Shown in pieces: positions 38,670 through 62,180 of a DNA stretch of 64,000 nt; within the stretch, counting starts at the first letter, position 1, and each line of letters opens with the position of its first letter. Below the pieces are notes generated by a model that worked only from the letters and a program-made list of their open reading frames with translations, had not been told where the DNA came from and ran no database searches. The stretch is from Octopus vulgaris (Eukaryota), in assembly GCA_951406725.2 (NCBI GenBank), contig OX597814.1, positions 214,582,001-214,646,000 of the forward strand, in the 5' to 3' direction. The position numbers and the translations under genes were made by a program.

Positions 38670-38884
38670 TAAAGTTAATCCAAGCAAGAAAGCACAAAAA
38701 AACACAACAACGTAAGGACGTGAAACAAATATAGTATTATTGGATGCTCAGGAAAGAAGAAAACAAGGAGGGTTTAATGTTTCGAGTGGAGCTCTTTGTC
38801 AGAAACATAGGAGAAGGAAAGATCCAGAGAAGGGAAGACCGAGGAAAAAAAATCGCCAACGGTACACACGCTGTCACATTTTGA
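38670..38884 (-). mobile_element. Penelope-derived solo pLTR-like element with decayed hammerhead (38772-38806), flanked by (TA)n
   Basis: Minus strand gttt-CTGACAA-A-GAGC-tcc-ACTC-GAAAC-ATT-aaac. Homologous to 60969-61101 and 50032-50131. Confidence 0.7.
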
Positions 38885-48817: not shown

Positions 48818-49548
48818 ACAAAGTATATACATACATTTCATTTATATACTTCATTAAGAATATACTCTTGTTTTGCAACAAACGAAAACCCCAAACACAA
48901 TAAAATGTCTATACCCCCAAAACAGACATAGTAAGAAGGATAATATTTACAGGATTCTGTTTTAGAACCTGGAATTCCTATATCCTGATTACAAATTTCC
49001 ATTTATGTGTATAATATTAGATATTTTGTATTTGTAACATTACCCAATAGAAGAAGCTAGGTTTCTTGGTTAAGCAAAATTAGAAAAATGCAATCTATTT
49101 TATCTTGTACAAATTTAATTTGCAAACAGGACAGTAATGAGTTTCAAGAATATTCTTTGAAGCTCAGACTCTGAGTCTACCAAGATATTATCTAAATTTG
49201 AAGAAGGGTATCGTCTTTCTTCGATGTCAACTGATTTTTTTATAGAAACAATTGATAAATAGTATTCTAATTTCTAATTACAATTATAATTTCTGAGTAT
49301 TAATTGCATCAATCTGGCCAGTTTGAAGGGATCTGTAATAGCTTTGAGTACTGTTTCTTTTGCTTGGTTTGAATATAAAACAATACAGTTTTTCAAATGG
49401 CCACAAAAGACCTACAAATCATCCTTAGAATAAGCAAATATATTTCATGTGGATCCCAGAAAGGAAAGAATAGCAGTAAAATAATCAATGTTTGGTATAC
49501 AGATTGTTGCAAAGAATATTGTTATTATGATTATCATATGTACATATA

Positions 49549-49601
<53 letters not shown>

Positions 49602-49690
49602 AATATTAGAGACAAAACCACTATTTTGCAAAACAAACAAGGAAAGACTTAATCAATACATAAAATTTTAATAAATAGTCAAAAAAACCG

Positions 49691-49733
49691 CCACTACAAT
49701 CGTTTCTTGTCTTGATCGACAATCTTCAGGTGG
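49691..49733 (-). ncRNA. Minimal type I hammerhead ribozyme (mirror copy)
   Basis: Exact reverse complement of 49779-49821. Confidence 0.8.
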
Positions 49734-49778
49734 ACTTCAATAAGTCAGTTTCAAATTTTGAAACTGACTTATTGAAGT

Positions 49779-49821
49779 CCACCTGAAGATTGTCGATCAA
49801 GACAAGAAACGATTGTAGTGG
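49779..49821 (+). ncRNA. Minimal type I hammerhead ribozyme, intact core
   Basis: ccac-CTGAAGA-ttgtc-gatcaa-gacaa-GAAAC-gatt-GTA-gtgg. Stem I ccac/gtgg, stem II 5 bp, 2 bp stem III, GUA cleavage site. Confidence 0.82.
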
Positions 49822-49997
49822 CGGTTTTTTTGACTATTTATTAAAATTTTATGTATTGATTAAGTCTTTCCTTGTTTGTTTTGCAAAATAGTGGTTTTGT
49901 CTCTAATAATATTTTATAATATTTTACTATAAAATTGGATTTAATCCTAAATCTGATTTTTTTCCCTGTAAATTTGGATTTATTCCCTAATATTTAT

Positions 49998-50031
<34 letters not shown>

Positions 50032-50036
<5 letters not shown>

Positions 50037-50129
50037 TAATCCAAATAAGAAAACAAAAACAAAAAAACAACAACGCAAGGACATGGAACAAATAAAGTAT
50101 TATTGGACGCTCAGGAAAGAAGGGAAGAA

Positions 50130-50131
<2 letters not shown>
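50032..50131 (-). mobile_element. Truncated copy of the 38670 pLTR family in (TA)n
   Basis: aaagttaatccaa..tattattggacgctcaggaaaga; ends just before the hammerhead. Confidence 0.75.
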
Positions 50132-61682: not shown

Positions 61683-61775
<93 letters not shown>

Positions 61776-61834
61776 GTCTGTCTGTCTGTCTGTCTGTGTG
61801 TCTGTGTGTCTGCCTGCCTGCCTGCCTGCCTGTA

Positions 61835-61868
<34 letters not shown>

Positions 61869-61884
61869 TCTATCTATATATATA

Positions 61885-61918
<34 letters not shown>

Positions 61919-61981
61919 TACAGGCAGGCAGGCAGGCAGGCAGACACACAGACACACAGACAGACAGACAGACAGACAGAC

Positions 61982-62070
<89 letters not shown>
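61683..62070. repeat. Inverted duplication of a compound microsatellite about a (TA)n centre
   Basis: (TATC)(TGTC)..tgtgtgtc(TGCC)5tgta.. is mirrored on the right. Confidence 0.9.
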
Positions 62071-62071
<1 letters not shown>

Positions 62072-62180
62072 TATATTCTGGTGTATATATATATATACAC
62101 CAGAATATACTTCAGTACACCAGGAACTCACATAAAGAATCTTGCAAACCAAATCCCAAAACGAAATATATATATGTTAA

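Follow-up and report, generated by a model that had tools for sequence, protein, structure and literature searches.

An inverted pLTR combined with a tail is already known from Penelope-like elements (PLEs) of the EN+ type (PMC3846280, PMC8557442), as are pairs of hammerheads on opposite strands (PMC4209133). In the available parts of PMC8557442 and PMC3846280 the way in which inverted PLE ends form and the reason for intron retention are stated to be open; PMC3846280 proposes self-priming on an antisense template for both the head-to-head palindromes and the intron retention. Poseidon from Anolis (PAc) has been studied in vitro and, as presented in PMC11167929, both strands are cut and extended and reverse transcription starts at two internal sites that bound the tail. 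For full-length LINE-1 insertions an extra G at the 5' junction is described as cap-derived (PMC11702581, in the part at hand).

The window analysed here, a stretch of 64,000 nucleotides from Octopus vulgaris, contains a palindrome that is a real, dead-end Penelope-type insertion composed of two intron-less leader copies arranged head to head. Head-to-head spliced insertions of this kind are a record of the PLE mechanism. Two features are apparently undescribed, namely the spliced leader copies and the strict pairing of a short with a long arm on what is probably one template: our literature search found no description of spliced PLE leader copies or of twin priming in PLEs, which older papers or supplements may contain.

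Geometry of the palindromic insertion

The arms are exact reverse complements of 152 bp each (49604–49755 and 49757–49908) around T49756 and the first mismatch is found at offset 153, which bears out the perfect arms around a single T that the initial annotation had reported. It had further placed the palindrome between two (TA)n arrays. The mirror is perfect and both arrays are present, but T49756 derives from the parent sequence as part of the left arm, the asymmetry of the unit with a tail of about 83 nt that is confined to one arm had been missed, and the right array does not lie directly at the palindrome, with about 93 nt of element (49909 to about 50001) intervening. Because arms of this family end at either a short or a long site and run into (TA)n, the whole insertion unit was taken as 49598–50001, a short arm and a long arm with tail, flanked on either side by (TA)n (Table 1).

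This copy has neither the ORF of the element nor the upstream promoter region of the parent, and none of the ORFs of at least 70 aa in the 64-kb window resembled a genuine gene when inspected by eye. The other perfect palindromes of the window have arms of at most 36 bp and are nearly all microsatellite. At 61683–62111 there is an inverted pair of 194 bp with (TATC)n/(GACA)n arms and zero spacer, and then a perfect palindrome of 42 bp (62070–62111). End fragments of another repeat family adjoin (TA)n at 50033–50131 and 38672–38759 and also occur in several of the fetched element loci, which suggests shared microsatellite targets and nested insertions.

Table 1. Parts of the insertion and its flanks (positions in the window)
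Feature	Position	Strand	Basis and remarks
Left (TA)n target microsatellite	49536..49597	.	213/214 sampled arm 3' ends have at least 4 TA units within 30 nt
Short arm, a copy of the spliced leader that spans about +9 to the short (first) 3' end	49598..49756	-	BLAST against parent L072; short-end class; 3' boundary imprecise (AT-rich)
Part of exon 1 left in the short arm, with the central T	49742..49756	-	Corresponds to L072:4585-4605, immediately 5' of the GTAAGT donor
Minimal type I hammerhead motif	49691..49733	-	Motif string match
Long arm, a copy of the spliced leader that spans about +10 to the long (second) 3' end	49757..50001	+	BLAST against parent L072
Part of exon 1 left in the long arm; exons joined at 49770/49771, parent's 1816-nt intron gone	49757..49770	+	Parent comparison
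Minimal type I hammerhead motif; predicted cut 49817/49818; helix III stable only as dimer (predicted)	49779..49821	+	Motif, fold, Hydra-PLE layout
Tail of about 83 nt from the short to the long 3' end, one arm only	49919..50001	+	Ends about 50 nt 5' of the parent ATG; leader ends 171 / 251
Right (TA)n target microsatellite	50002..50032	.	Repeat array

The parent element

Widely spaced pairs of the ribozyme led to a parent, L072, in which a pLTR with hammerhead is followed by an ORF of 839 aa and by a second pLTR 5996 bp downstream (a unit of 5996 bp). This parent and the head-to-head leader arms uphold the initial reading of the locus as a Penelope insertion with an inverted partial pLTR. The ORF carries the motifs YRDD and VYKC...YIG of a reverse transcriptase (RT) and a GIY-YIG endonuclease. 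In a Foldseek search with a model of the protein (pLDDT 77.6) the top matches were TERTs (E 3e-9); Pfam gave no relevant match for the parent protein and a PDB sequence search did not recognise it. The RT and GIY-YIG domains in a single ORF, the hammerhead in the pLTR, the tandem or inverted partial pLTR copies and the one-sided tail are traits of EN+ Penelope-like elements, and the (TA)n insertion (213 of 214 arm ends) is a trait of the Hydra clade. Any target-site duplication would be masked by the (TA)n sequence of the target.

A comparison by eye with the description of that clade found SDKT, CTC-x5-C, CYLC and CRH and no CCHH in the parent protein (P0001). Its N-terminal motif is KWK, and RWK, RWR or KWK occurs among 11 aligned homologues. 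Judged by these motifs and by published descriptions, the parent is likely a new family of the Hydra clade; a first guess, the Neptune clade, was dropped on comparison with the clade description in the accessible text of PMC8557442. An asparagine-rich, low-confidence insert lies between RT and endonuclease at residues about 492–601 of P0001 (L072:709-3225) and is absent in most homologues; N-rich inserts are also present in Adineta Penelopes. Three further parents of the G type (L074, L082 and L083) have a tandem duplication of about 1.74 kb with two or three promoter/donor copies, and internal inversions are seen in long inserts.

The arms are spliced leader copies

The first 14 nt of the right arm equal the parent sequence just 5' of a GTAAGT donor, and the remainder of the arm starts right after TTTTAG, 1816 nt further on. 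By this sequence comparison each palindrome arm is the 5' leader of the parent minus a GT-AG intron of 1.8 kb. The earlier partial-pLTR reading was correct with respect to the inverted pLTR but had missed this identity of the arms as spliced 5'-leader copies.

Searches for the exact junctions returned 457 spliced and 434 intron-retaining copies genome-wide, together with 151 exact copies of the donor. The distance between donor and acceptor in the parents is 1815–1826, about 3040 or about 3550 nt, yet all give one spliced junction, and the marker haplotypes of the spliced copies (C-GG 22, T-G 12, C-G 12, T-GG 0) mirror the parent types. As the parent distances differ and three matching marker haplotypes are present, spliced copies arose repeatedly and do not descend from a single deleted master.

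Fifteen exact matches to the pLTR-ORF junction were found, of which nine have an intron-retaining upstream pLTR, five are truncated or inverted and one is a stub that ends before the ATG; a spliced leader joined to an ORF occurred in 0 of the 15. The intron is thus kept in the ORF-bearing copies with an intact upstream pLTR (9/15 junctions) and in 434 arms, and is lost in 457 arms including those of the window.

A common 5' boundary and an extra G

Sixty-four spliced arms reach the A of an Inr-like TCACT. Upstream bases were listed for 57 of them: 52 stop at this position and five continue into parent sequence. We infer from this boundary that the A is the transcription start (predicted +1). 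An extra G where the parent has C was counted by eye in 33 of the 52 arms that stop at +1 as compared to 19 of 129 arms that start at +2 to +13, the latter being the only baseline taken and drawn from a tally that included loci picked with the G in the pattern. The G is preferred at joins, and solo arms are joined as (TA)n-G at L032 and L139. It is likely a copied cap as far as the sequences tell, although in many cases this G could instead be the final base of the opposite arm. At L119/L120 and L140 spliced arms begin about 25–120 nt farther 5' than usual, which suggests read-through RNA or minor start sites upstream.

The hammerhead ribozyme

The string in each arm parses as previously written and agrees with the elements of a minimal type I hammerhead, i.e. 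the core CUGANGA/GAAA/NUH, helices I and II and a palindromic helix III (motif and fold). Its layout CUGAAGAU, with a 4-bp helix II, AGAA and the palindromic helix III, is that of the Hydra-PLE hammerheads in the part of the PMC8557442 supplement at hand, and the claim of one hammerhead per arm is confirmed in that motif and predicted fold agree and the layout matches. In Rfam nothing in the window reached the gathering score, and the 30 weak matches at 49500–50100 are generic hairpins that do not include a hammerhead family; the assignment is therefore based on motif, fold and the Hydra-PLE layout.

The dimer fold is predicted at -21.4 kcal/mol with helix III as an intermolecular duplex of 8 bp, and the monomer helices have a low ensemble probability (at most 0.16) in the leader context. 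In the fold of the full palindrome the hammerhead helices have a probability of 0.00, and a read-through transcript is therefore predicted to be a plain hairpin. The initial annotation had postulated a unit that either self-cleaves or folds into a 152 bp dsRNA with a role in siRNA/ADAR pathways; this remained unsupported, and the locus is devoid of the parent's upstream promoter region. In the palindrome insertion itself the hammerhead would be a passenger.

The exact ribozyme of 43 nt occurs 452 times genome-wide and most arms retain it as a whole, which identifies uncut RNA as the main template. The arm starts by leader position are 67: 0, 69: 1, 70: 6, 71: 4, 72: 6 and 73: 4, with the predicted cut at 71/72. 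Starts at 72 and 73 outnumber those at 67 and 69 by 10 to 1 (P=0.006) in this count of positions 67 and 69–73, of which 70–71 are confounded by TA microhomology and in which stalling of the RT at the helix would leave the same pattern; in the insert L202/L203 both arms begin exactly at 72. The distribution hints at occasional cleavage in vivo, with TA microhomology or RT stalling as alternatives, and judged from the arm sequences the hammerhead likely cuts only a minority of templates. An ORF-bearing copy, L073:1395 (G000:C1:218253393), has its 5' end at the predicted ribozyme cut.

A young family of asymmetric insertions

A search for other copies had been suggested with the initial annotation. 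Of 1072 candidates 40 were scored; they gave 64 matches, at least 48 of which in the genome are identical to the arm over all 152 nt. These matches and the 34 differences in 8891 compared sites between paired arms support recent activity of the family and are in line with the earlier proposal of a very recent insertion. The fetched loci resolved into 133 distinct elements, a biased sample picked mostly by spliced-junction patterns.

Arms end at two places, leader position 171 (short) or 251 (long). Of 81 head-to-head inserts with two arms, 78 combine a short with a long arm, two are short+short with a third, long arm nearby and one is unclear. In the two exceptions (L020 and L092) the long arm follows a few hundred bases off with other DNA between, possibly a capture of host sequence. 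Solo arms are short in 30 and long in 17 cases. The centres vary between loci and mostly show 1–6 nt of microhomology, with negative gaps of 1–6 nt in 52 of the 81 pairs. The long arm is the more 5'-truncated one in 16 of 78 pairs and the short arm in nine, and in six pairs the long arm begins no earlier than leader 167 and consists of little more than the tail. Long-arm starts are weakly enriched next to the short site (6/19, P=0.03), with AT-rich microhomology as a confounder. With the tail by itself as DNA query no match was obtained, an uninformative outcome since common words were skipped.

The arm sequence is present in 20 sequencing runs from 10 studies under 8 organism labels, so that the family may be common to related species; no RNA run was among the listed runs that contain the arm, and three pieces from a run presumed to be RNA were left out of the analysis.

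Both arms agree

The two arms of an insert were compared in rows of 78 spliced and 100 intron-retaining copies on C1, C2 and C3 up to 86.6 Mb, after 22 later spliced rows had been dropped so that both lists had an equal range. The 44 head-to-head pairs comprised 19 spliced/spliced, 25 retained/retained and no mixed pairs (P about 1e-13 if independent), and the G/GG marker agreed between the arms in all 44. In short inserts three markers agreed in 51/51, 48/48 and 52/53 pairs, and six rare substitutions were common to both arms as compared to 0.09 in shuffles, with 34 unshared in the 8891 sites. Sequence agreement of this extent makes it likely that both arms were written from one spliced RNA, although the concordance also fits a snap-back of the cDNA or gene conversion between the arms.

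Mechanistic models

The parent, the precise loss of the GT-AG intron, the common 5' boundary, the short+long pairing, the arm concordance and the (TA)n targets are direct observations. We consider it probable that the inserts arise by twin priming, in which one capped and spliced sense RNA is copied from two fixed sites with strand displacement and the cDNA ends are joined. At a cut (TA)n site both strands would prime reverse transcription at the two fixed internal sites of this RNA, the RT would presumably recopy the same RNA and displace the first cDNA, and the two cDNA 3' ends would then be joined via 1–6 nt of microhomology. The RT is not known to have an RNase H. As both priming sites precede the ATG, cDNA started within the spliced leader would give nothing but sterile stubs; for a copy with the ORF, synthesis would have to start in the downstream pLTR of a read-through RNA, in which the intron is mostly retained. 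Several points are less well accommodated by twin priming: truncated long arms could be later deletions at the palindrome centre, the two short+short inserts have their third long arm nearby, no strand difference in start site was seen in vitro as far as described in PMC11167929, and no reason is given for the 434 arms that keep the intron at the downstream pLTR.

A snap-back of the cDNA is the strongest competitor, though we regard it as rather unlikely. A cDNA started at the long site would reach the 5' end of the RNA, fold, copy itself and be cut or stop at the short site, followed in some cases by deletions at the centre. This would cover the full concordance of the arms, the short/long pairing and the microhomologies and negative gaps at the centres, and self-priming with resolution of the tail by the endonuclease has been proposed in PMC3846280 and PMC8557442 (in the parts at hand). 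However, a copy can be no longer than its template, whereas the long arm falls short of its partner at the 5' side in 16 of 78 pairs and is almost tail-only in six, and solo short arms exceed solo long ones; each such case needs a second deletion event, and twin priming is favoured for these reasons. Moreover, the equivalent of the short site is a true RT start in vitro (PMC11167929, as far as available). Twin priming and snap-back alike imply a spliced template in the sense orientation; for the octopus family this speaks against the antisense self-priming proposed in PMC3846280.

We think it improbable that the arms are copied from two separate but like RNAs, one round each, which stem from a single active locus and may be linked via the palindromic helix III. 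The intermolecular duplex of helix III and the predicted dimer fold would suit such a pairing, and a single source per cell would give concordant markers, but one source should yield spliced as well as intron-retaining ends, whereas none of the 44 pairs is mixed, and equal molecules do not predict the strict short+long pairing (78/81). A self-propagating, palindromic MITE-like element that originated by a single internal deletion is very improbable: the inserts are short, ORF-less, have inverted ends and exist in hundreds of copies, but the deletion is exactly the GT-AG intron, loci differ in their centres, the two ends are unequal and solo arms are common, and the same junction in several (three) parent haplotypes largely refutes this origin. 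A fold-back library or assembly artefact at the window locus, the main alternative of the initial annotation, is very unlikely. In its favour, the arms are perfect and no contig from four sequencing runs spans the locus or an empty allele; against it, the same layout with its fixed short/long asymmetry recurs in 78 inserts at dozens of loci with differing centres, fold-back centres of other loci are present in short-read contigs of two studies, and an artefact would have mirrored tail and flank as well.

Twin priming, if correct for the octopus family, might extend further. That PLEs generally integrate by a programmed form of it, in which a dimeric protein uses the two target strands as primers on fixed sites, two in number, of a single RNA, is in our estimation an evenly balanced proposition. 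It would provide one rule for the tail, the inverted pLTR and the intron retention, and spliced capped mRNA would give rise to a large class of sterile leader palindromes in which transcription start, splice junction and ribozyme cleavage in vivo are recorded. The young octopus family would be a countable genomic record of a sense, spliced and likely capped RNA as template, with both arms from one template. As parent copies have a long open frame, the model is testable in the existing in vitro assay.

Comparison with known systems

The octopus family resembles other EN+ PLEs (PMC3846280, PMC8557442, as far as described there) in its head-to-head inverted pLTR, the tail at one end, the microsatellite target, the Inr-like TCACT in the pLTR and the asparagine-rich stretch in the ORF. 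The tail is longer (about 80 nt as compared to 30–40 bp in the available descriptions), and, unlike in these elements, roughly one exact junction in two is spliced. The antisense idea of PMC3846280 is at odds with sense-spliced copies ending at +1, a statement that applies to the octopus family only. With the Hydra clade, including Hydra-1_Obim, the parent shares the C-terminal endonuclease, DKT, CxCx5C, CxxC and CxH, the lack of CCHH, the (TA)n target and the hammerhead layout, whereas the hammerhead sequence differs from that of Hydra-1_Obim, the unit of 6.0 kb exceeds the generally <3 kb of the clade and KWK is found where RWK is given (PMC8557442, in the parts available).

Schistosoma PLEs have dual minimal hammerheads on opposite strands, 100–700 bp apart, i.e. 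the same back-to-back arrangement, and their cleavage is weak and dimer-dependent, a likeness that is predicted from the fold for the octopus ribozyme; the accessible text of PMC4209133 does not trace them to spliced leaders. Two other classes were considered and rejected. Non-LTR retrozymes are head-to-tail tandem hammerhead units (10.64898/2026.07.22.740005, as far as described), whereas octopus arms are head to head or solo, and MITEs have equal terminal inverted repeats and a fixed internal sequence, whereas the octopus unit has unequal ends, variable centres and an exon junction.

LINE-1 twin priming, as described in the available part of PMC11702581, is similar in that a second primer on the same RNA leads to an inversion and in that an extra G and microhomology joins are present. 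The second site of LINE-1 is not fixed, whereas the octopus family has two fixed sites and a single leader that is copied twice. In LINE-1 twin priming the two segments are not known to overlap.

PAc shares with the octopus family two start sites that bound the tail, the use of both strands, an AT-rich target and uncut RNA as the main template (PMC11167929). That work is in vitro and, in the parts accessible to us, deals with neither splicing nor inverted arms. The octopus sites, unlike those in the PAc description as far as it is available, are both located upstream of the ATG, one per arm.
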